Of a stretch of DNA of 51,377 nt, positions 3,814-32,443 are shown piece by piece (position 1 is the first letter of the stretch; each line of letters starts with the position of its first letter). This DNA is from an uncultured Staphylococcaceae bacterium (GTDB taxonomy: Bacteria; Bacillota_I; Bacilli_A; RFN20; CAG-826): assembly GCA_964606005.1 (NCBI GenBank), contig CAZSEU010000004.1, positions 1-51,377 of the forward strand. Reading direction: 5' to 3'. The notes below the pieces were generated by a model, which was not told the origin of the DNA, did not search any database, and worked only from the letters and a program-made list of their open reading frames with translations. Both the position numbers and the translations under genes were made by a program.

Positions 3814-5241
3814 ATGGGTAAATTTTGGGAAATAATTGTCGCTTTTATGCAGGATTCGGGCATCGCCGGTTTTTTTGCCGACGGTGGTTGGCGCAACCTC
3901 ATCATGATTTTGATTGCCCTCGTCCTCTTATTCCTCGCGATTAAAAAAGACTTTGAACCTTATCTACTTTTGCCAATCGCTTTCGGGATGTTGCTCGTCA
4001 ACCTCCCATTCGTAGCTAGTGAAGTGTTCATCAAAGGCTCAACCGCTTATAATTCCATTACTTTAGCGGCTAATGCCGGAATTACTTCTTCGCAAAGCGA
4101 TTTCATTTTTGAACAATTCGCGGTATTTGCTGGTCAACTCGGATTCACTATCACCGATGGTCAAGCAACCACCGCACAACTACACCAACTCGTCATGTTG
4201 CCTGATTTCCAAACCGCCATGCAAAATCAGCTTGGCCTTAATGCGGATATGACCAAGGCTATCGTGAGCGAAGTTGAACATTTATACAATTACGATTATT
4301 CAGGCATTTTTGGTTACTTATATTACGGAGTTAAATGGGGTATTTATCCTTGTTTAATTTTCTTATGTATCGGTGCGACTACTGACTTTGGACCATTAAT
4401 CGCTAATAAGAAAACAATGTTGCTCGGCGCTGCTGCCCAACTCGGTATTTTTATTACTTTTGTTGGTGCAATCGCTATAGGAACTAACGGTTTGGGTTGG
4501 ACACAATTCGACGCTAGAATCGCTTCTTCTATTGGCATCATCGGTGGCGCTGACGGGCCAACTGCTATCTTGGTTACTTCTAAGCTAGCTCCTGAATACT
4601 TATCATCTATCGCCGTTGTTGCTTACTCATATATGGCGTTAGTACCAGTTATTCAGCCACCAATCATTAGAGCGTTAACCACAAAAAAAGAACGTCTTAT
4701 TAAGATGGAAACTCTTCGTGAAGTTTCTAAAACTGAAAAGATTATGTTCCCAATTGCGGTGACCATTATTACTGTTTTAATCGTTCCTAGTGCAGGCGCC
4801 TTAATCGGTTGCTTAATGCTTGGTAACTTAGTTAAAGAAAGTGGCGTCGTACCAAAAATTACCGAAACACTTTCCAATTCGTTGCTCTATATTGTCACTA
4901 TTTTATTAGGCGTTTGTGTTGGTTGTACCGCTGATGCGGCCACCTTCTTGACACTCGATACTATTATTATCTTTGTTCTTGGCATTCTTGCCTTCTCAGT
5001 AGCGACTGCGGGAGGTGTCTTGAGTGGCAAACTCATGTGCTATTTAACAAAGGGCAAAGTCAATCCAATGATTGGTGCGGCTGGCGTTTCCGCTGTTCCA
5101 ATGGCAGCACGTGTTGTCCACAAAGAAGGCGTCAGAGAAGATCCAACAAACTTCTTGCTCATGCACGCAATGGGTCCTAACGTTGCTGGTGTTATCGGCT
5201 CCGCCATAGCTGCCGGCGTGTTATTGCTCTTATTCCTTTAA
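3814..5241 (+). CDS. oadB: Na+-translocating decarboxylase beta subunit (OadB/GcdB/MmdB family)
   Basis: 475-aa polytopic membrane protein with family-typical blocks DFGPLIANKKTMLLGAAAQLGIF, IGIIGGADGPTAI, AYSYMALVPVIQPPI and MHAMGPNVAGVIGSA. Confidence 0.85.
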   Translation: MGKFWEIIVAFMQDSGIAGFFADGGWRNLIMILIALVLLFLAIKKDFEPYLLLPIAFGMLLVNLPFVASEVFIKGSTAYNSITLAANAGITSSQSDFIFEQFAVFAGQLGFTITDGQATTAQLHQLVMLPDFQTAMQNQLGLNADMTKAIVSEVEHLYNYDYSGIFGYLYYGVKWGIYPCLIFLCIGATTDFGPLIANKKTMLLGAAAQLGIFITFVGAIAIGTNGLGWTQFDARIASSIGIIGGADGPTAILVTSKLAPEYLSSIAVVAYSYMALVPVIQPPIIRALTTKKERLIKMETLREVSKTEKIMFPIAVTIITVLIVPSAGALIGCLMLGNLVKESGVVPKITETLSNSLLYIVTILLGVCVGCTADAATFLTLDTIIIFVLGILAFSVATAGGVLSGKLMCYLTKGKVNPMIGAAGVSAVPMAARVVHKEGVREDPTNFLLMHAMGPNVAGVIGSAIAAGVLLLLFL

Positions 5242-6020: not shown

Positions 6021-6669
6021 AGACATTCGCGCGGTCATTTTTGATATGGATGGCACCCTGATAGATTCAACCGGTATTTGGCACGCAATTGATGAAGCGT
6101 TTTTTGCAAGAAGAAACATGACCATTCCGGACGACTACGCACAAAAAATTGTTCACTTAGGTTTAAAACAAGCCGCAATTTATACCAAAGAAACGTACGG
6201 CATTAAAGATGAACCAGACCAAATCATGGCGGAATGGCACGATATGTCGCGACAAATGTATCACCATCAAGTCCCTTTAAAAGACGATGCTTTAACTTTG
6301 TTGAATTTATTAAAAAGTCGCGGTGTAAAAATGGGTATTGCGACGGCTAATGATGAGCATCTTTATCTTCCTTGTTTGAAAAGATTAGGTATTGAAGACT
6401 ACTTTGACTTTGTCGCTGATGTAAATTTAGTTAAAGAAGGCAAGCAAAGTGGAAAGATATACCTATTTCTCGCGGATAAACTCGGTTTTAAGCCCGAAAA
6501 CATTATGGTGCTTGAAGATATGCCTACTTGCATCAAAACAGCCCATGAACACGGTTTTTTAACAATTGCCGTTGCTGATAATGCTTCCAAAGCTTTTGAT
6601 GACGAAAAAAGATCCAATTCGGATCTTTATATCGATGGCTTCGAACAGTTATTAGCAATTTTAAAGTAA
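6004..6669 (+). CDS. HAD-superfamily hydrolase (beta-phosphoglucomutase/phosphatase-like, subfamily IA)
   Basis: 221 aa. Motif I is FDMDGTLIDS and motif IV is LEDMPTCI. It overlaps the birA 3' end by 17 nt. Confidence 0.75.
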   Translation: MKILNKDIRAVIFDMDGTLIDSTGIWHAIDEAFFARRNMTIPDDYAQKIVHLGLKQAAIYTKETYGIKDEPDQIMAEWHDMSRQMYHHQVPLKDDALTLLNLLKSRGVKMGIATANDEHLYLPCLKRLGIEDYFDFVADVNLVKEGKQSGKIYLFLADKLGFKPENIMVLEDMPTCIKTAHEHGFLTIAVADNASKAFDDEKRSNSDLYIDGFEQLLAILK

Positions 6670-7659
6670 GAATACGTTCGCCTCTTTGAAGGCTTCAATA
6701 TCTTCTTTAGACCAATATGAAGCTTGAACCTCACCGATGTGAATCTTTTTGAGTAAGTACATACATAAGCGAGATTGACCAATTCCCCCACCGATTGAAA
6801 GAGGCAATTCATCATTTAAAATAGCTTGGTGATATGGAAGTTCTAATTTATACTCTTCGCCCCGAGCCTTAAGTTGATTGATTAAGGATTGTTTGTTAAC
6901 TCTAATGCCCATTGAAGAAAGTTCAAAAGCAATTTGAAGTGGTGCGTACCACAAAATAATATCACCGTTTAACTCCCAATCATCGTAGTCAGCCGCGCGT
7001 CCATCGTGCGCTAAACCATCACCGAGAGGACCGCCGATTTTCATTAAGAAAACAGCGCCACATTTTTTTGCGATAAGATTTTCTCTTTCTTTGCGATCAA
7101 CGTCAGGATATAAAGCTTCTAATTCATTCGTGGTAATAAACGTAATTTTTTTTGGAAAACCATTTTTCAATATTGGATATTCCTTAATCAGTAATTCATA
7201 TGTTTGTATAAAAACTCGATAAATAGCTTCAACGATGCTTTTTAAAGTGGCAACAGTTCTTTCTTGAGGTTTTAAACTTTTTTCCCAGTCCCATTGATCA
7301 ACATACAAAGAATGTAAATTATCTAATTCTTCAAAACGTCTGACCGCGTTCATATCGGTATATAAACCAGTAATTTGGTATTTTGCTAATGCATAGCGTT
7401 TCCATTTTGCTAAAGATTGAACAATTTCCAATTCTTTTTGGTTCTCATTCACAACAAAAGAGACGGCTTTTTCATAGCCATTTAAATTATCGTTTAATCC
7501 GGTGCTTGGTTCGACAAAAAGTGGAGCGGATACGCGAGTTAAATTAAGCTCTTTTGCTAATAAGTCTTCAAATGTGTCTTTAATTAACTTAATTGCTTTT
7601 TGCGTATCTAAAACGTTGAGTAAGCTCTCATATTGGGTGGGAATAATATTGTTTTTCAT
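6661..7659 (-). CDS. asnA: Aspartate-ammonia ligase (asparagine synthetase A)
   Basis: 332 aa with close AsnA-type blocks SLAKWKR, VDQWDWE, LNGDIILW, FELSSMGIRV and GGGIGQSRL. Confidence 0.9.
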   Translation of the reverse strand: MKNNIIPTQYESLLNVLDTQKAIKLIKDTFEDLLAKELNLTRVSAPLFVEPSTGLNDNLNGYEKAVSFVVNENQKELEIVQSLAKWKRYALAKYQITGLYTDMNAVRRFEELDNLHSLYVDQWDWEKSLKPQERTVATLKSIVEAIYRVFIQTYELLIKEYPILKNGFPKKITFITTNELEALYPDVDRKERENLIAKKCGAVFLMKIGGPLGDGLAHDGRAADYDDWELNGDIILWYAPLQIAFELSSMGIRVNKQSLINQLKARGEEYKLELPYHQAILNDELPLSIGGGIGQSRLCMYLLKKIHIGEVQASYWSKEDIEAFKEANVFLL

Positions 7660-17857: not shown

Positions 17858-19408
17858 ATGAGTCATAATCCTTTAGTACTTACTTTAGATTTCGGCACTC
17901 AATCTGTAAGAACAACTTTAATCAATAAACAAGGTGAAATCGTATATTTATCCAAAAAAATATATGAACCTTTGTATTTTTCACCCAAAAAAGGTTATGC
18001 AGAACAACATGCTGATTTTTATTGGGATAATTTAATTGCATGTATTAAAAAAATGGTCAAAGAGGCCAAAGACAAACTTAAAGATGTCGTCGCGATGGCG
18101 GTGACAACTTTTCGCGATTCGGCAGTTTTGCTTGATGATAAAAATAAACCTTTAAGACCGGTGATTTTGTGGCTCGACCAACGCTTGGCAAAAGCTAGAG
18201 AAAAGCTTCCTTTACTCCATCGCATCGCATTCAAAGTTGTCGGCATGATGGATACAATCAACATGAACCGCACTCGCACCCCAGCTCATTGGGTTAAAGA
18301 AAATGAACCTGATATTTGGGCAAAAACAGAAAAATATGTGAATATTTCTACTTATATTAATTATCGTTTAACTGGTGAGCTCGCCGATTCTCCTGGTGGT
18401 TTGACTGGTCATTTTCCAATTCACTTTAAGAAATCAAAGTGGTACAAAGAAGGAGCGATGAAGGGTCGCATTTTTGGTATTCCTAATCGTATGTTACCAA
18501 AAATTGTGGTTTCAGGTGGGGAGATAGGAGTGTTATTAGATCAGGTTGCTGATCAACTAGGTTTACCTAGAGGTTTAAAATTAATCGCTACTGGTAGTGA
18601 TAAGGGTTGTGAAACCATAGGTTTGGGTTGTTTAACTCCAAATATGGCTGCCATTTCATATGGAACAGCATGTTCTATCGAAGTGAGCAATCCCGTTTAT
18701 CATGAACCAGAAAAATTTTTACCAGCTTATTCTGGCGCAGTGCCTGGTTTATATAGTCTAGATGTACAAATTTATCGTGGCTACTGGATGCTAAGATGGT
18801 TTGCTAACGAATTTGCATCTGAAATAGAAAAAGAATCCAACTTAAAGAAAGTTCCAGTCGAAGCTGTTCTAAATGAATGGCTTGACGATGTTTCTCCGGG
18901 TTCAGACGGCTTGATTTTACAGCCATATTGGGGTCCTGGTTTATCACGACCTTTAGCAAAAGGCGCGATTGTTGGTTTTTCTAGCATTCACTCCCGTAAA
19001 CATATTTACCGGGCAATCGTGGAAGGCATTGCTTTTGAGCTAAGAGAAGGCTTAGAAGGAATTGAGCGCTCGCAAAAGCAAAAAGTGAAAACCATGAGAA
19101 TTTCTGGTGGCGGTTCAATAAGTGATAAGATTTGTCAAATTACCGCAGATATTTTCGGTAGGGAAATTTCAAGAATTCAAACTAGTGAGTCTACCTCGCT
19201 GGGCGCAGCGGTTGCCACATTTACGGCAATTAAGGAATTCGAAACTGTCCATGATGCGGTTGATAGTATGGTTAAAGTTTCAAAAACCTTTAAACCAAAT
19301 ATGCAAAACCATGCAAGATACAACCAAATATTTAAAGAATTATACCAAAAAGTTCATAAAAGAATTAACCCACTTAATCGAAAAATAAATAAATTATTTA
19401 AACGTTAA
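17858..19408 (+). CDS. FGGY-family carbohydrate kinase (sugar specificity unknown)
   Basis: 516 aa with the N-terminal LDFGTQSVR phosphate-1 motif, TGSDKGCE and the C-terminal ISGGGS motif. The SD is GGTGGTGG. Confidence 0.8.
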   Translation: MSHNPLVLTLDFGTQSVRTTLINKQGEIVYLSKKIYEPLYFSPKKGYAEQHADFYWDNLIACIKKMVKEAKDKLKDVVAMAVTTFRDSAVLLDDKNKPLRPVILWLDQRLAKAREKLPLLHRIAFKVVGMMDTINMNRTRTPAHWVKENEPDIWAKTEKYVNISTYINYRLTGELADSPGGLTGHFPIHFKKSKWYKEGAMKGRIFGIPNRMLPKIVVSGGEIGVLLDQVADQLGLPRGLKLIATGSDKGCETIGLGCLTPNMAAISYGTACSIEVSNPVYHEPEKFLPAYSGAVPGLYSLDVQIYRGYWMLRWFANEFASEIEKESNLKKVPVEAVLNEWLDDVSPGSDGLILQPYWGPGLSRPLAKGAIVGFSSIHSRKHIYRAIVEGIAFELREGLEGIERSQKQKVKTMRISGGGSISDKICQITADIFGREISRIQTSESTSLGAAVATFTAIKEFETVHDAVDSMVKVSKTFKPNMQNHARYNQIFKELYQKVHKRINPLNRKINKLFKR

Positions 19409-19419
19409 GAGGTGCTATT

Positions 19420-19572
19420 GTGAGTGATTATATGGAAGAAAATAAAAAGCGCAAACGCCCACATCAAAAGTATTATGGCGGCGAAGACATTGAAATGTTC
19501 AAGGAACGCGAACGCAATAATAAGCGAGAAGGCGATAAGAATATTTGCGATGACCATGTTGATGGTGCATAA
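19420..19572 (+). CDS. Small hypothetical highly charged protein (50 codons from GTG, 46 from the internal ATG at 19432); absent from the ORF track
   Basis: My translation is (V)SDYMEENKKRKRPHQKYYGGEDIEMFKERERNNKREGDKNICDDHVDGA*. AAGAGGTG lies 5-12 nt upstream of the GTG. The ORF starts 12 nt after the FGGY kinase stop. Confidence 0.3.
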   Translation: MSDYMEENKKRKRPHQKYYGGEDIEMFKERERNNKREGDKNICDDHVDGA

Positions 19573-19697
19573 ATAATTAGTGATCGTTTTTATAAAATAA
19601 TAAGTGACACTAGAAACATCTTGTCACGACAATAATTACATAAGTTCTAGTTATTAACCCGTATTTTTGCAAAAATACACCTATACGAGGTGACTTT

Positions 19698-20597
19698 ATG
19701 GCGATATATCAAATCTTTACTGATTCAAGCTGTGATTTAAGTACAGAAATACGCAAGGCCAATAATCTGGAGTATTTTTATTGTGGCTTAGTAGTGGATG
19801 GCGTCGAATATCGCGCCGATCTTGACTGGAAAGATTATACTGCCGAGCAATTTTATGATTGGTTAGTACAAGGTAAGAAAATAAAAACCACCCAACTTTC
19901 TATGAAAGAAGTAATTGAAAAAGTTACTCCCTACTTCGAAAAAGGTATTGACATCATTTATGTTGGCTGTTCAAGCGCTTTGACAGGTTCGATGAATTTG
20001 TTCGAACTTGCCAAAAGACAACTACTTGAAGAGTACCCTGAACGCAAGATGGTTGGTGTTGATACATTAACTGCCAGTGTGGCTTTGGGTATGCTGGTGT
20101 TGGATGCTAAAAAGAAACAAGAAGAGGGTTTGACGATCGAACAATTAGAAAAGTGGGTATTAGATAATCGCTTTTTTTACAATCAATTTGCAACAGTTGA
20201 TACTTTAACCTATTTACGCGCTTCTGGACGCATTAAAGGCTTGGCCGCTTTCTTGGGTAATATCATGGCAGTTAAACCAATATTTATTAGCGATAGAAAA
20301 GGCAACAATTATACAATCAACAAAGTTAAGGGTACCAAAGCTTCTTTGAATGAATTATTCGAAGGAGTAAAAAACGCTTATGTTGAAGGCGAAACCAAAG
20401 AAATATATATCGGTCATGGTCGTGCGATTGATCGCGCTGAAATGCTTAAAAAGCGCATTGAAGAAGAACTAAAAATTCCTGCACATATTCTTTGGATTGG
20501 ACCAATCGTTGGTACCACTTGTGGGCCAGGTGTATTAGGTACATTTTGTCGCGGTAAAGAAGTTACTCGTTACGAAGGCGAACCAAAGAACCAATAA
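19698..20597 (+). CDS. DegV-family fatty-acid-binding protein
   Basis: 299 aa with the N-terminal IFTDSSCDL and DegV-like sequence throughout. The SD is GAGGTGA. Confidence 0.85.
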   Translation: MAIYQIFTDSSCDLSTEIRKANNLEYFYCGLVVDGVEYRADLDWKDYTAEQFYDWLVQGKKIKTTQLSMKEVIEKVTPYFEKGIDIIYVGCSSALTGSMNLFELAKRQLLEEYPERKMVGVDTLTASVALGMLVLDAKKKQEEGLTIEQLEKWVLDNRFFYNQFATVDTLTYLRASGRIKGLAAFLGNIMAVKPIFISDRKGNNYTINKVKGTKASLNELFEGVKNAYVEGETKEIYIGHGRAIDRAEMLKKRIEEELKIPAHILWIGPIVGTTCGPGVLGTFCRGKEVTRYEGEPKNQ

Positions 20598-21639: not shown

Positions 21640-21699
21640 TAAATTAATACTTTGCGCCATGAGGTTGGAATAAACTTCGTTTTCGTGTAAAGTATTTAT

Positions 21700-23310
21700 A
21701 TGAAAAATCGTTATTTTGATGCATTATTTACATCATTATTATCAATTGGACCAATTATCCTACTGGTCTGCATTTTATCTTGGACACCTTTGCTAAATTT
21801 TAGTGGTAATGATTACGCGATGCTATTGTTTGGTGGTGTGGCTCTGATTTTAGGTTTAGCCTTATTCCAAATTGGCGCTTTAACAGGCTTGACAAAGGTC
21901 GGAGAATATATGGGTAGTTCCTTATCCCGCCAAAAGCAGCTTTTTGTTATTGTTATATTTACCTTCGCACTCGGAGTGCTTATTACTTGCGCCGAACCAT
22001 CACTTCTTATTGTTTCGAAACAAGTGACAATTGTTCCAAATAACGAGGCATTAAATGCTGTCATCTTAATCGGTAGTATTGCTATCGGTGTTGGTGCATT
22101 TGTCGTCATCGGTGTATTAAGAATTATTTTGCATAAACCACTAAAAATGTGGGTCATGTTTTTCTATTTAATTACTTTTTTGCTAGTTTGCTTAGTGGCG
22201 GTTGATCCAGAAAAAGCAGAAATGTTGCCCTTTATCTTTGATAGCGGCGGAGTTACTACTGGCGCGGCAATTATACCTTTTGTATTATCGCTCGGTCTTG
22301 GTGTTGCGATTGTTCGCGGTGGAAAAACTGCTAACAGCGACAGTTTTGGACTTGCGGGCTTAGTCGCCATCGGACCAGTCATTGCTATGTCGGTTAGTAT
22401 TTTAATTCAATCAAATGTTCCTGAATACATTTATGAAGCACCAGCTCCATTTGGTAATGATTTCTTAGGTCGTTTATTTAACGCTATGATTCCCCATAAT
22501 GGACAATTAGGGTCAATGATAGAGGTGCTGATTGCCATTTCACCAATTCTAATTGTTTTCTTCGTTTACGAGCTGATTTTCATCAAACTACCACTTTCAA
22601 AAGTCCTGACTTTATTGGTGGGCTTTGGTTTCTGTTTTGTTGGGCTGTCATTTTTCTTGGCATCTGCAAATGCAATTATGGGACCAATGGGTGGCATGGT
22701 TGGACAATCACTTGGCGAATTTTGGCAAAGTCATCAATGGGTTGTCATCTTAGTGGCATTTACTATTGGCCTAGTAACAATTCTTTGCGAACCCGCAGTT
22801 CATGTATTGACCACACAAATCGAAAATATTTCCTCCGGACAAATCAAAAAAAGTACAGTTTTAATCGTTCTTTCTTTGGCGGTAGGTTCTGCCATTATGC
22901 TTGCAGCAATACGCACGATTTATGATTTTTCAATTTTATATTACCTAGTTCCAGGATATATAATTTCGTTAACACTGATGCTTTTTTCTCCAGATATTTT
23001 TGCGGCTATGGCCATTGACTCAGGCAGCACAGCCTCTGGTCCTATGGCAGCGTCATTTGTCATGCCTTTTGTCATTGGTATGTATTCAATTATTTCCACT
23101 GATAAACTCAATCTAGATAGTTCTTATCGTGTCAGTTTCTACGGACAAGCTTTTGGTGTTGTGGCACTGGTAACTTTGATGCCAGTTATCGCAATCCAAC
23201 TCTTGGGCATTATAATCGAATTAAAACAGTATCGTCGTCTTGCTTTGGCTCGCAAGGCGATCATCGAACAGGACGATGTCCAAGTTATCCATTTTAATAA
23301 GGGGGTGTAA
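21700..23310 (+). CDS. Polytopic membrane protein with two homologous halves (DUF1538-like), unknown function
   Basis: 536 aa with at least 12 hydrophobic segments. The duplication is visible by eye: ITCAEPSLLIVSKQV / ILCEPAVHVLTTQI and IFDSGGVTTGAAIIPFVLSLGLG / AIDSGSTASGPMAASFVMPFVIG. The family name is assigned from memory and is not verified. Confidence 0.6.
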   Translation: MKNRYFDALFTSLLSIGPIILLVCILSWTPLLNFSGNDYAMLLFGGVALILGLALFQIGALTGLTKVGEYMGSSLSRQKQLFVIVIFTFALGVLITCAEPSLLIVSKQVTIVPNNEALNAVILIGSIAIGVGAFVVIGVLRIILHKPLKMWVMFFYLITFLLVCLVAVDPEKAEMLPFIFDSGGVTTGAAIIPFVLSLGLGVAIVRGGKTANSDSFGLAGLVAIGPVIAMSVSILIQSNVPEYIYEAPAPFGNDFLGRLFNAMIPHNGQLGSMIEVLIAISPILIVFFVYELIFIKLPLSKVLTLLVGFGFCFVGLSFFLASANAIMGPMGGMVGQSLGEFWQSHQWVVILVAFTIGLVTILCEPAVHVLTTQIENISSGQIKKSTVLIVLSLAVGSAIMLAAIRTIYDFSILYYLVPGYIISLTLMLFSPDIFAAMAIDSGSTASGPMAASFVMPFVIGMYSIISTDKLNLDSSYRVSFYGQAFGVVALVTLMPVIAIQLLGIIIELKQYRRLALARKAIIEQDDVQVIHFNKGV

Positions 23311-23312
23311 TT

Positions 23313-23720
23313 ATGGCTCGTGGCATTAAATCAGATCTGATAAAAAAAGAAACAAAAGTTAATAAAAAGCAATCATTTGATAAAACCCATGATATCAAAC
23401 CACTTTATATTTATATTGCTGTTGTTGATTATGGTGATGGGGCAGAAGTTGTGGAAATATTCAAAAACGCAGGTTCTTCTCTTCAATTCGTGCAAATAGG
23501 CGAAGGAACTGCCTCAAGACATGTTCTTGAAATTTTGGGCATTGAAGACAGTAGAAAAGAAATCGTATTTTCTTTAATTAAAGGTGAAGATTTACAAAAA
23601 GCAACCACTGAATTAGAGGTTTATTTTACCGCTAATCATAAAAGTAGAGGAATTGGTTTCTCAATTGCACTAACCGGTTTAGCGGGTGTGAAAATGTATC
23701 AATTTCTCACACAGTTTTAG
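23313..23720 (+). CDS. PII-like (GlnB-fold) signalling protein, divergent, with a 30-aa basic N-terminal extension
   Basis: 135 aa. Its pattern suggests a beta-alpha-beta x2 fold (LYIYIAVVDYGDGAEVVEIFKNAG ... EIVFSLIKGEDLQKATTEL ... RGIGFSIAL). The SD is GGGGGTG and the gene starts 2 nt after the membrane gene. Confidence 0.5.
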   Translation: MARGIKSDLIKKETKVNKKQSFDKTHDIKPLYIYIAVVDYGDGAEVVEIFKNAGSSLQFVQIGEGTASRHVLEILGIEDSRKEIVFSLIKGEDLQKATTELEVYFTANHKSRGIGFSIALTGLAGVKMYQFLTQF

Positions 23721-23732
23721 GAGGGTATTAAT

Positions 23733-24107
23733 ATGGCGAAAATGGAACTCATTATTGCAATATGCAATGTTGGATTTGCCGAAGCGGTAATGGATGTCGC
23801 AAAACTTAATGGAGCACGTGGTGGGACAATTTCCCATGCTCGTGGTTCAACCACACCAGAAATCGAAAAAAAATATGGTGTCTATGTCACTCCTGACAAA
23901 GAAATGGTTTTTATTGTTGTGCCAACAAGAATTAGAGATAAAATCTTAAACGCAATTTACGCATCAGTAGCAAAAGGCAAGCCAGGCAACTGCGTGGCAT
24001 TTTCATTACCAGTCGAAAACACTTTAGGAATCCGTTATGCCGAAGAAGCAGAAACAAAAAAAGAGGCTCCGAAAGAAGCCCCTAATCCTGATAAAAAAGC
24101 TTTATAA
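23733..24107 (+). CDS. PII-family (GlnB-like) signalling protein
   Basis: 124 aa that aligns by eye with GlnB/GlnK. It has beta1 MELIIAICN, a T-loop-length insert after HARGS and the B-loop-like GKPGNCVAFSLPVE (compare GKIGDGKIFVSPVE). The SD is TAGGAGGG. Confidence 0.65.
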   Translation: MAKMELIIAICNVGFAEAVMDVAKLNGARGGTISHARGSTTPEIEKKYGVYVTPDKEMVFIVVPTRIRDKILNAIYASVAKGKPGNCVAFSLPVENTLGIRYAEEAETKKEAPKEAPNPDKKAL

Positions 24108-25931
24108 ATCACCTTTGCGCGCTCTAGAATCAAATTTCTTGCGTTCACCAGTATTTAGGATCTTTTTGCGCATTCTATAGGTGAGCGGGGTAATTTCCAC
24201 CAACTCATCAGTGTTAATATAATCTAAACACGCCTCGAGAGACATTCTGCGAGGTGTTTTTAATACGACCGTATTGTCTTTACCAGCACTTCTCATGTTG
24301 GTTAAGGCTTTCTTTAATACCACATTGACCGCTAAGTCGAAATCATAACGGTTTTCACCAACAATCATGCCTTCATACACCTCGGTACCTGGTTCAATAA
24401 ACATCGTACCTCTTTCTTCAACATGCTGAATAGCATAAGGTGTGGATTGGCCGCTTTCTGTAGCAACTAATACACCAACTATTCTTTCTCCTAAACCAGT
24501 ATTGCTTGAAGTAGGGCGATATTCTTTATAAGTATGGGAAATAATGCCATAACCTTTCGTTAAAGTCATGAAATTGGTCATAAAACCAAGCAAACCACGA
24601 GAAGGAATTACGTAGGTAAGAATTGTTGTTGTATCTTTGGCGTCCATATTAATTAATTCCGCTGATCTAACACCCAAAGAAGTCATAATATCGCCGACGA
24701 ATTCGTTAGGAACATCGATCAATAAATCTTCATATGGCTCATGTTTTACGCCATCAATTTCTTGGATGATTACTTGCGGTTTGCTGACTTCTAATTCAAA
24801 ACCTTCGCGGCGCATGTTTTCAATTAATATTGATAAGTGCAATTCGCCTCTACCAGAAACAATCCAAGATTCTTTCTCTGGGATTCTTTTTACTCTTAAA
24901 GCAACGTCTTTTTGCATTTCGCGGTAAAGTCTTTCTTCAATTTTTCTTGCGGTTAAGATCTTACCCTCTTTGCCGGAAAGTGGCGAAGAGTTAGTGCCAA
25001 AAGTCATCTGTAAGGTTGGCTCATCTAACTTAATAGGAGGAAGAGGAACAACGTGCTGAGAACTACAAATAGTTTCGCCAACATTAATATCGGTCAAACC
25101 GGCAACAGCGACGATTTCGCCTGCAACAGCTTCTTCAATTTCTAAACGCTTTAAGCCTTGGTAACCAAATAATTTCATGACGTGGAAATTGACGGTGCTA
25201 CCATTGTTACGTGAGACAGTGACATTATCGTTAACATGTATTTTACCTTTTTTAATGGTGCCAATGCCAATGCGACCAACAAAGTCGTTGTAATCAAGCA
25301 AAGCCACTTGCATTTGAAGTGGGGCATTTATATCGACATTTGGAGCAGGAATTTCTTTTATAATGGTGTCTAATACTGCGTCCATACCAGGCTTTTGGGT
25401 ATTAACATTAGCTTGTAATGAACTGGTACCTTTTAAACCAGAAGTATAAATAACTGGGAACTCTAAAAATTGTTCTGGAGCGCCTAGTTCAATAAATAAT
25501 TCTAAAACCTCATCGAGAGAGCCCTCGATATCGATGTTGTTGCGATCCACTTTATTAATAATAACAATCGGTTTGATGCCTGCTTGTAAGGCCTTTTTTA
25601 AGACAAAGCGTGTTTGAGGCATCGTGCCTTCGAAAGCGTCAACGAGTAATAAACAACCATCGACCATATTCATAATACGTTCGACTTCGCCACCAAAATC
25701 AGCGTGTCCTGGAGTATCAAGAATATTGATTTTTGTGTCTTTATAAATAATTGAAGTAGTTTTGGCGAGAATGGTAATACCTCTTTCTCTTTCGAGATCG
25801 TTACTATCCATAGCGCGAACATTGACTTCTTCGTTCACGCGAAAAGCGCCGGCAGATTTCAATAATTGATCAACTAGAGTGGTTTTGCCGTGGTCAACGT
25901 GCGCGATAATGGCGACATTACGAATATTCAT
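24102..25931 (-). CDS. typA: Translational GTPase TypA/BipA
   Basis: 609 aa with G-domain motifs [14 protein letters not shown] and NKVD and BipA-like C-terminal domains. The SD is AGGAGG. Confidence 0.93.
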
Positions 25932-30836: not shown

Positions 30837-31832
30837 TTAGTCCTCTTTTTTGATTGTGTAAAAGATGTGATCGATTAATAAGGCAATGTTTACATTGGTG
30901 TTAACTGCAGTCGAACATTTTAACAACTCAATCAAACTTTCATCTAAATGATAAAGTTTGTTAACGAGATGATGTAATATTGTAGCATAAGTTTGTAGAA
31001 AAGGTGGCTTATCATTTTTAATAGCTATTAAATCTTCAAATGCCACAATTAACATATTGATAAAATAACGGGCTGTTTCTTTGTTTTTAATTTGATTAGT
31101 TACTTGGCTTTGAGCAAAATAGGTCAAATCATCATTTGAACCACTAGCAATAACTTCCATCGTTGCTTCAAAACAAGCTTTCGCTGTTATGAAAGCAGAG
31201 TTTTCGTCAGGATTATCAAGAATGTCTTTGATTAGTTCACCGTCATTATAAAAACAAGCTAGTAATTCAGCATCCTTTTCGTTAACACCAAGACCAATGG
31301 CCTCGTTCATCACAATAGTGCGATCAATTTGTTTGAGATGTAAGACTTGGCAGCGGGAAATAATCGTTGTAAGAACACTGTTTTCATTATTAGTGGTCAA
31401 AAAAGCATAAATTTGTTTTCCAGGCTCTTCAAGAATTTTTAAAATGCTATTGATAGCTTCTGCTGTCATGTTTTCCACTAGGTGCAAAATGTATATACGG
31501 ATGCCCTTATTTTCAAATGCTTCCTTATCGAATGCCGATTCAATCGCGGTGACGGCTTCTTTTTTAATTGTGGCTTTACTACCATCAAAAAGTAAAAAAT
31601 CTGGATAGTTATCGTCTTCTACTCTTAAACAAGAGATACATTTGCCGCAAGCTAAAGGATTAGGATTATCGCAAAGAATTGATTTTCCAAAGTATTTGGC
31701 TACTTCTAATAGCGGCGCACCATTATGGCCGACAATCAAATATGCGTGATTCAAACGACTCATTGTTAAAGAATTAACAAAAGTTTGATAAATCACTGGT
31801 TGATAATTTTTTAAATAGTTTTCTACTCTCAT
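30837..31832 (-). CDS. holB: DNA polymerase III delta-prime subunit
   Basis: 331 aa. It has an AAA+-like N-terminal domain with the zinc module CGKCISCLRV and the SRC motif (ISRCQVL). Its start overlaps the tmk stop. Confidence 0.8.
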   Translation of the reverse strand: MRVENYLKNYQPVIYQTFVNSLTMSRLNHAYLIVGHNGAPLLEVAKYFGKSILCDNPNPLACGKCISCLRVEDDNYPDFLLFDGSKATIKKEAVTAIESAFDKEAFENKGIRIYILHLVENMTAEAINSILKILEEPGKQIYAFLTTNNENSVLTTIISRCQVLHLKQIDRTIVMNEAIGLGVNEKDAELLACFYNDGELIKDILDNPDENSAFITAKACFEATMEVIASGSNDDLTYFAQSQVTNQIKNKETARYFINMLIVAFEDLIAIKNDKPPFLQTYATILHHLVNKLYHLDESLIELLKCSTAVNTNVNIALLIDHIFYTIKKED

Positions 31833-32443
31833 AACCTGGTAAGTATGGCATTCAAGGTGGCTTCCGCTACTGCCTGACGGTCTTTGGAAGCGTCAATAAT
31901 GACATAACGCTCAGGATAGCGTTTGGCTAAGTCCAAGAATGTGCTTCTTACCATTCTATGGAACTCTAATTTCTCTAAATCTAAACGATTGACTTCGCGA
32001 TTGGCATTAGCCTGGATGCGCGCTAAACCGATTTCTGGGTCGAGATCAAACAAAAGAGTCAAGTCAGGAAAAGTGCCTTCAGTAGCAAATAAATTAACAT
32101 TTAATACATTATCAATTCCAAGCTCTCTAGCGCCACCTTGATAGGCTAAAGATGAATCTAAATAACGATCACAAACAACTATTTTGCCTTCTTTTAATGC
32201 TGGCCAAATCTTTTCGACGAGATGTTGTCTTCTAGAAGCAGCATAAAGAAGTGCTTCGGTTCTTTTATCCATCGCGATATTACTCTTATCAAGGATAACA
32301 TTGCGAATTTGCTCGGCTATTGGGGTACCACCAGGCTCACGAGTGCGGACAATTTGATAGTTCATTTCTAATAACTTATTAACTGCGTAATCAACAGCAG
32401 TAGTTTTGCCAGAACCTTCTGGACCTTCGATTGTTATAAACAT
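31829..32443 (-). CDS. tmk: Thymidylate kinase
   Basis: 204 aa with the P-loop EGPEGSGKTT, the DRY motif (CDRYLDSSLAYQG) and a lid region. Confidence 0.92.
   Translation of the reverse strand: MFITIEGPEGSGKTTAVDYAVNKLLEMNYQIVRTREPGGTPIAEQIRNVILDKSNIAMDKRTEALLYAASRRQHLVEKIWPALKEGKIVVCDRYLDSSLAYQGGARELGIDNVLNVNLFATEGTFPDLTLLFDLDPEIGLARIQANANREVNRLDLEKLEFHRMVRSTFLDLAKRYPERYVIIDASKDRQAVAEATLNAILTRL

Follow-up and report, generated by a model that had tools for sequence, protein, structure and literature searches.

A DUF1538 membrane protein encoded with two divergent PII-fold paralogs: a putative PII-regulated transport module of gut Firmicutes

A stretch of 51,377 nt from an uncultured Staphylococcaceae bacterium (NCBI GenBank assembly GCA_964606005.1, contig CAZSEU010000004.1, positions 1 to 51,377 of the forward strand; the whole of it is called the window below) carries a co-directional, plus-strand trio of open reading frames (ORFs), in which the gene for a polytopic membrane protein is followed by those of two small proteins, ORF2 and ORF3 (Table 1). 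The gap between the membrane gene and ORF2 is 2 nt and that between ORF2 and ORF3 is 12 nt, and each of the small ORFs is preceded by a strong Shine-Dalgarno (SD) site, the one serving ORF2 being embedded in the final codons of the membrane gene. The coordinates, lengths, gaps and SD sites are all as given in the initial annotation of the window, which had been made from its letters and a list of its ORFs. The membrane gene itself has no recognisable SD sequence in the interval 21640-21699, before the ATG at 21700 (...cgtgtaaagtatttatATG); this ATG is taken as the start because homologs keep the MKNRY N-terminus that it specifies. The trio probably forms a single operon with translational coupling.

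Table 1. Features of the three-gene locus, in coordinates of the window
Feature	Position	Strand	Basis
Membrane protein gene (536 aa), two fused DUF1538 (UmpA/UmpB-like) repeats, polytopic	21700..23310	+	Pfam, NCBIfam, self-alignment, hydropathy
CAEP motif, aa 97-100, half 1, end of hydrophobic segment 3; A98, E99, P100 invariant	21988..21999	+	Alignment, hydropathy
FDSGG motif, aa 180-184, half 1; D181 invariant, then invariant T187, G188	22237..22251	+	Alignment, hydropathy
CEPA motif, aa 363-366 (CEP aa 363-365), half 2; E364, P365 invariant	22786..22797	+	Alignment, hydropathy
IDSGS motif, aa 439-443, half 2; D440, S441, G442 invariant	23014..23028	+	Alignment, hydropathy
Tail motif DDVQVIHF, aa 525-532, predicted cytoplasmic tail, candidate docking peptide for the PII-like proteins	23272..23295	+	Alignment of family
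SD of ORF2, AAGGGGGTG, within final codons of membrane gene	23299..23307	+	Sequence inspection
ORF2 (135 aa), divergent PII-like protein, basic N-terminal extension	23313..23720	+	AlphaFold2 model, Foldseek, hhalign
SD of ORF3, AGGAGGG	23719..23725	+	Sequence inspection
ORF3 (124 aa), PII-family protein of DUF1538-associated type	23733..24107	+	Pfam P-II, AlphaFold2 model

Pfam recognises DUF1538 (PF07556) twice in the membrane protein (expect value (E) 1.3e-97, 325.7 bits against a cutoff of 22.6), and its two halves can be aligned with each other (BLASTP E 1e-9, 22% identity over 193 aa), which bears out the earlier reading of an internally duplicated protein with one (C/A)EP and one DSG motif in each half. 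What is encoded here is one chain with two homologous halves, not two separate subunits. A crude hydropathy scan resolves this chain into ~7+7 hydrophobic segments, with a basic N-terminus and a strongly basic C-terminal tail, and, should all of the segments span the membrane, the two halves would be inverted to each other. The (A/C)EP and DSGGxT(T/S)G signatures carried by each half lie in or adjoin hydrophobic segments, and E99, P100, D181, T187, G188, E364, P365, D440, S441, G442, S446 and G447 do not vary among relatives, down to an identity of 37%. The protein had been described as an orphan, a label that is hard to maintain when more than 2,800 relatives of the fused DUF1538 protein are found at E<=1e-10 and at least 578 matches in metagenomes. 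UmpA (NF041627; 125.5 bits against 490) and UmpB (NF041628; 119 against 500) are the sole NCBIfam models matching it, both below their equivalog cutoffs, and by these scores it is classed as a member of the DUF1538 family and not as an UmpAB equivalog. Searches of PDB sequences with the single sequence and with a profile returned no relative; with DUF1538 as the only family found, the initial statement that the membrane partner is neither AmtB nor SbtA stands.

Among the two small proteins, ORF3 matches Pfam P-II (PF00543) with 28.9 bits, above the cutoff of 25, PF00543 is also the precomputed assignment of its homologs, and a PDB sequence search with it matches archaeal GlnK chains. The NCBIfam P-II (GlnB/K) equivalog model gives 15.7 bits against a cutoff of 202, and, judged by its profile scores, ORF3 is a member of Pfam P-II and not a canonical GlnB/GlnK. 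Its AlphaFold2 model (predicted local distance difference test (pLDDT) score of 80, with the last 20 residues disordered) finds GlnK/GlnB as its best Foldseek matches (E ~1e-6, 22-29% identity) and predicts a double beta-alpha-beta fold in which strands 2 and 3 are connected by a T-loop, the length of which is near-canonical in the hhalign alignment to GlnB. G30, G31, T32, G38, K56 and E57 are strongly conserved in the ORF3 family. Y48 (23874-23876), a conserved Tyr/Phe within KKYGV or KRFGV, aligns with Y51 of GlnB, the uridylylation site of proteobacterial PII.

ORF2 has no match in Pfam (P-II included) or NCBIfam, and as a single sequence it finds nothing meaningful among PDB sequences. Hence, whereas two of the Pfam results expected in the initial annotation (PF07556 twice in the membrane protein and P-II in ORF3) were obtained, the PF00543 match expected for ORF2 was not. 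The ORF2 family comprises 1,134 representatives in an exhaustive profile search, and the AlphaFold2 model of ORF2, built from an 87-sequence alignment (pLDDT 88), has a beta-alpha-beta x2 core, for which the best PDB matches in Foldseek are SbtB, CPII and TTHA0516 (E 5e-6 to 1e-4, target-normalised template modelling (TM) scores of 0.65-0.80). Weak Pfam P-II matches are given by 14 of the 87 family members (best E 8.2e-5), and hhalign aligns the ORF2 family with the ORF3 family over 107 columns (98.5% probability, E 3.5e-15). Because this profile-profile alignment is strong and contains a single one-residue gap, ORF2 and ORF3 are paralogs with loops of equal length; the T-loop position holds a short helix in both models (residues 69-75 of ORF2 and 42-48 of ORF3), and its sequence is conserved. 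The model thus predicts a PII fold for ORF2, and the proposal that both small proteins have this fold is upheld, with the specification that ORF2 is PII-like by fold and profile homology only, its connection to PII running through ORF3, intermediate sequences and the fold itself. In the ORF2 family, G65 is invariant and T66, K82 and G113 are near-invariant. The 30-aa N-terminal extension of ORF2 is basic (9 K/R against 4 D/E), as annotated from the start, and it is modelled with lower confidence. Where sources name the two small proteins at all, they name them 'hypothetical protein'.

How widely is this arrangement kept? The nearest genome, which supplied the sole locus to come out of a genome scan with the single sequence, is an Erysipelotrichaceae metagenome-assembled genome (89% identity), in which the trio and its flanks are unchanged; the trio also persists around homologs of 66%, 56% and 54% identity, one of them in another context. 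When metagenome contigs were searched with a diverse alignment, 80 loci at 35-57% identity were obtained, and 63 of them are informative in that they extend at least 850 nt downstream of the DUF1538 (hereafter transporter) gene. In 63 of 63, according to hidden Markov models (HMMs) of the two families, the gene that directly follows that of the transporter is ORF2-like and the next one ORF3-like (58 separate pairs, three fused pairs, and L052 and L090, where both genes are visible), and elsewhere in the locus flanks the same HMMs give essentially no signal. Clustering of the flanking ORFs over the 80 loci revealed no recurrent neighbour except an RluD-like gene in 7 related loci. Since no other neighbour recurs, the trio is a self-contained module, and it is one that is common in gut Firmicutes.

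The genes are also found fused. In one protein of 654 aa (P0195), two DUF1538 domains are continued by a C-terminal ORF2-like domain, and a separate P-II gene follows 2 nt later, and many proteins of 220-280 aa are tandems of an ORF2-like and a P-II domain, one of them encoded directly after a DUF1538 gene. In RefSeq, tandems of 222 aa from Paraclostridium and Peptoclostridium are named 'P-II family nitrogen regulator' and stand beside a 'DUF1538 domain-containing protein'. The N-domains of the tandems score best with the ORF2 profile and the C-domains with the ORF3 profile (the ORF2 profile also matches the P-II half). By the Rosetta-stone argument, such fusions suggest that the transporter, ORF2 and ORF3 are physically close to one another and present in equal amounts, and, taken with the adjacency in the 63 informative loci, they support the initial view that the small proteins are paralogs coupled to the membrane protein. 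In Methylocystis and Chelativorans, both Alphaproteobacteria, two split DUF1538 genes, for the N- and the C-half, precede one ORF3-type P-II gene, the product of which reaches 90 bits with the ORF3 profile versus 50 with that of ORF2. The simplest history would begin with an ancestor that had a split transporter and one PII partner, and in Firmicutes the halves of the former would have been fused and the latter duplicated. In some lineages, a later fusion would have joined the duplicate to its paralog or to the transporter, and in others it would have stayed or become a separate gene, as here.

A feature absent from the initial annotation is a conserved acidic-hydrophobic motif in the C-terminal tail of the transporter. 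Over the tails of 78 loci, the family consensus is DD(E/D)QII(Y/N/D/H)F, situated a few residues from the C-terminus, and D526, I530 and F532 of the window protein are near-invariant in its relatives. The motif is preceded by a K/R run that follows the last hydrophobic segment, for which reason the tail should be cytoplasmic. A strict II-x-F tail occurs in 57 of the 60 loci in which ORF2 and ORF3 are separate genes (of the three exceptions, two come near to a match) and in none of the four loci with a fused ORF2-ORF3 pair; neither the Clostridial systems with fused pairs nor the split proteobacterial ones examined have it. Presence of the motif therefore tracks with a separate ORF2 gene, in raw locus counts that ignore kinship, and we infer that the tail is a docking peptide for the PII-like pair. 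A second contact site may lie on ORF2, in the FDK-x3-IK segment. These residues (22-29; 23376-23399) stand just before strand 1 and are invariant among close homologs, and the first four of them (22-25) are modelled as a short helix.

What might the PII-like proteins sense? ORF3 was mapped onto Escherichia coli GlnB, whose sequence was entered by hand, by hhalign (91%, E 9e-7). It retains the GGT strand-2 face and the equivalents of GlnB G27, T29, G35, G87 and F92, together with a Lys next to the K58 position and a K/R at R103, most of these positions being invariant in the ORF3 family. The triphosphate, Mg and 2-oxoglutarate contacts of GlnB are made by R38, Q39, G89, K90 and R101, and because these residues are replaced in ORF3, canonical sensing of MgATP and 2-oxoglutarate by this protein seems unlikely. 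For ORF2, positions were obtained by chaining the ORF2/ORF3 family alignment onto the ORF3/GlnB alignment, which puts G65 at GlnB G35, K82 beside K58 and G113 at G89; the family consensus has K/R directly preceding the Gly at the G89 position, and the GGT strand that ORF3 keeps is missing. According to the titles of PDB entries, structures of SbtB and CPII have AMP, ADP, ATP, cyclic AMP or cyclic di-AMP (c-di-AMP) bound. Since such PII-like proteins with non-canonical sites do bind adenine nucleotides, our guess for the ligand, and by analogy it is only a guess, would be an adenine nucleotide held in a mode other than the canonical ATP/2-oxoglutarate one.

UmpA and UmpB are the only characterised DUF1538 proteins. 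Co-expression of the two, which come from Halomonas zhaodongensis and were described in 2017, rescues E. coli KNabc and gives pH-dependent Na+(Li+,K+)/H+ antiport, which is seen also in membrane vesicles; each has 7 predicted transmembrane segments, the system works in E. coli from its two membrane genes alone, the cloned Halomonas fragment of 4.2 kb carries no ORF beyond umpB, and the paper never mentions PII (PMC5484666). With this antiporter (PMC5484666) and the UmpA/UmpB models of NCBIfam, the initial statement that no substrate is assigned for the family is out of date. The module had also been called uncharacterised, and this claim is weakened because the family has a characterised member, a finding that the initial annotation had itself named among those that would count against it. 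The window protein shares with UmpAB its Pfam family (PF07556), the two homologous DUF1538 units of ~7 segments and conserved Asp, Glu, Gly and Phe residues, and differs from it in that both units are fused in one 536-aa chain, that proteins of the window type are always followed by two PII-like genes, and that they bear a DDxQIIxF tail, which the split proteobacterial homologs examined do not have. By analogy with UmpAB, the likeliest activity of the protein would be that of a monovalent cation (Na+/K+/Li+)/proton exchanger, a tentative assignment that in our estimate falls somewhat short of an even chance; binding of cations and protons would fit because buried Glu/Asp residues are invariant in both halves.

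Putting these elements together, we favour a model in which a secondary transporter of the cation/proton type is gated by a pair of PII-like proteins. As a whole, this model has perhaps slightly better than an even chance of being correct, and its broader component, namely that the small proteins regulate or partner the transporter, is highly probable. The 536-aa protein would be the single-chain version of the two-subunit UmpA/UmpB transporter, ORF3 would be the ancestral-type PII partner of the transporter family, and ORF2 would be a diverged paralog that arose by duplication in Firmicutes. Acting jointly and in equal amounts, ORF2 and ORF3 would form a cytoplasmic PII-like assembly that docks on the cytoplasmic face of the transporter, probably including its DDxQIIxF tail, and, depending on the small molecule bound, the docked assembly would open or plug the transport path, in the way that GlnK acts on AmtB and SbtB on SbtA. 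PII proteins can indeed plug secondary transporters (10.1101/2023.08.10.552651).

Several considerations weigh against this model. Beyond the gene structure, the folds, the paralogy, the strict co-occurrence and the fusions, which the analysis establishes, its docking, gating, ligand and substrate are all inferred, and a three-fold PII trimer has no obvious fit to a pseudo-two-fold transporter. On the side of the transporter, UmpAB activity comes from one heterologous complementation and vesicle study (PMC5484666), the window protein stays far short of the equivalog cutoffs of UmpA and UmpB, so that its substrate may differ, and neither in the window nor in the related loci does a riboswitch or a conserved neighbour support a substrate. 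On the side of the small proteins, the residues replaced in ORF3 mean that nucleotide binding is not assured, and the correlation between the tail motif and the ORF2 gene takes no account of phylogeny. Finally, no alignment was obtained when the ORF2 family was compared by hhalign with a single GlnB sequence, and it is because the family cannot be aligned to GlnB directly that databases miss it.

The alternative that survives best retains the PII-gated architecture and replaces the alkali cation by an anion or a small metabolite (e.g. bicarbonate), so that UmpAB antiport would not be representative of this clade. Room for it is left by the low scores of the window protein with the UmpA and UmpB models (125 and 119 bits, where the cutoffs are 490 and 500) and by the origin of the UmpAB assignment in one heterologous screen, and the known pairs of PII-like proteins and transporters carry ammonium or bicarbonate. 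The nearest structures to ORF2, those of SbtB and CPII, are moreover carbon-linked, but their likeness to ORF2 reflects the shared PII fold and says nothing on the substrate. Cation/proton antiport is the sole experimental datum for DUF1538, the invariant buried Glu/Asp of both halves suit the binding of cations and protons, and no recurrent genes of carbon or nitrogen assimilation are found nearby; we consider a non-cation substrate rather unlikely.

It is less probable still that ORF2 and ORF3 are obligate structural or assembly subunits, i.e. degenerate PII folds that sense no ligand. Such a role would be in keeping with their co-occurrence in 63 of 63 loci and with the lineages in which ORF2 is covalently joined to the transporter, as well as with the loss of the canonical triphosphate and 2-oxoglutarate contacts from ORF3 and the even greater divergence of ORF2. 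It sits poorly, however, with UmpAB being functional in E. coli from two membrane genes alone (PMC5484666). Residues at the base of the T-loop and in the loop (G65, T66 and K82 of ORF2; G30, G31, T32, G38, K56 and E57 of ORF3) are kept in a manner typical of ligand or partner sites, and SbtB and CPII, whose sites are non-canonical, still bind nucleotides; taken together, these points make purely structural subunits improbable. The last possibility, a transceptor in which the membrane protein would serve as a sensor or anchor that sequesters the PII-like proteins away from their real targets among cytoplasmic enzymes or regulators, could appeal to the T-loop of near-canonical length kept by ORF3, to the many soluble targets of canonical PII proteins and to the sequestration of GlnK at the membrane by AmtB, but is very improbable, as the module is found by itself in many genomic contexts, where no third partner recurs, and as fusion to the transporter would hold ORF2 at the membrane permanently.

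The model of a transporter gated by a PII-like pair invites comparison with three known systems. SbtA is the cyanobacterial bicarbonate transporter and SbtB its PII-like regulator; as in that pair, a secondary transporter is co-encoded here with a PII-like protein, the model of ORF2 comes closest to SbtB, and the same plug or valve logic is proposed. In contrast to that pair, the membrane partner is unrelated in sequence, there are two PII-like paralogs instead of one, and the trio has no carbon-concentrating context. In the trio, as in AmtB-GlnK, a PII gene comes directly downstream of that of the transporter, and ORF3 is a Pfam P-II member whose model lies nearest to GlnK/GlnB. Unlike GlnK, ORF3 has lost the equivalents of R38, Q39, G89, K90 and R101, a second, divergent paralog is present, and there is no nitrogen-assimilation context around the trio in the flanks of the 80 loci. 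It follows from the unrelated membrane partner that the trio, which operates in the manner of AmtB-GlnK and SbtA-SbtB according to our model, belongs to neither. DarA/PstA (YaaQ) is the c-di-AMP receptor of Firmicutes and is not known to be linked to a transporter as the trio is. It resembles the window proteins in being a small PII-like Firmicutes protein; the ORF2 family profile picks up no PDB sequence other than its structure 4RLE, in a weak match (E 0.3, 13.9 bits) that is not significant. The initial annotation had observed that no darA gene stands at its usual place between tmk and holB in the window, and had concluded that ORF2 and ORF3 are its only PII-fold genes. Indeed, tmk (31829-32443) and holB (30837-31832), both on the minus strand, overlap by 4 nt at 31829-31832, with no darA/yaaQ-like gene between them, and both family profiles and a GlnB query match ORF2 and ORF3 alone in the window (no DarA-specific profile was used), in agreement with that conclusion.

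A more specific version of our model may be envisaged, in which ORF2 and ORF3 form an obligate hetero-oligomer, their complementary and partly degenerate halves building composite ligand sites, and in which this complex clamps the DDxQIIxF peptide and gates a cation/proton exchanger according to a Firmicutes second messenger such as c-di-AMP, or to the adenylate state. An obligate complex of ORF2 and ORF3 in equal amounts is what the tandem fusions imply; in its entirety, the proposal is a speculative one that we regard as unlikely. If it were true, PII sensors would have their first heteromeric example, and ion homeostasis in gut bacteria would have a new and widespread point of control.

Some further observations concern the surroundings of the trio. 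ORF3 and the convergent typA/bipA gene (24102-25931, minus strand) share 6 nt at their stop codons, and the stretch of ORF3 that codes for its disordered, variable C-terminal tail contains, on the minus strand, what looks like a terminator hairpin of typA (24083-24062; 9 pairs and a T-run). On the plus strand, inspection as far as 24500 showed no terminator for the trio. Upstream, a gene of the FGGY kinase type (17858-19408) is directly followed by a DegV gene (19698-20597). In two relatives, L002 (589-1927) and L005 (1519-2867), an ATP-grasp gene (398 aa) and an ORF of 46-50 aa stand between the FGGY kinase and DegV genes, and this possible pair of a peptide ligase and a small peptide is missing from the window, as judged at 19408-19698. 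In L005, a RimK/ATP-grasp-type gene (6273-7172) overlaps the 3' end of the P-II gene and extends the operon, an arrangement not seen in the window. Riboswitches were found neither in the window nor, over 31 related loci, just upstream of the gene for the transporter. An M-box (Mg2+) riboswitch in L030 (1283-1442, 109 bits) precedes a 465-aa ORF located two genes upstream (the order is M-box, 465-aa ORF, RluD-like ORF and DUF1538 gene at 3974); occurring in one locus, it is probably unrelated. A glycine riboswitch in L066 was rejected as a link to the trio, as it lies on the opposite strand.

PII proteins are among the most widespread signalling proteins, and yet, to our knowledge, few of their partnerships with transporters are understood, i.e. 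those of AmtB with GlnK, of SbtA with SbtB and of the nitrate transporter NrtABCD with PII. In the full text of the searchable literature, we found no paper linking DUF1538, UmpAB, PF07556 or TTHA0516 to PII, and none of the six papers in which DUF1538 is named deals with PII signalling; the adjacency of DUF1538 and PII is nonetheless visible in RefSeq annotation, and the partnership between DUF1538 transporters and PII proteins is apparently a widespread one that has escaped description. PII gating of a transporter would in itself extend a known principle, to which the trio adds a duplicated and specialised PII pair, a PII-like family missed by databases and a candidate docking tail. The poorly studied DUF1538/UmpAB family emerges as invariably tied to its own PII lineage, which in Firmicutes has been duplicated into two specialised paralogs, and this offers a concrete hypothesis for the thousands of proteins that gut and rumen metagenomes list as 'hypothetical protein'. 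Do PII-like proteins work as heteromers? The trio is a natural system in which to ask. For specialists of PII, it represents a natural and useful extension of the field that is directly testable, and for the transporter family, it suggests that antiporters of the UmpAB type are regulated.

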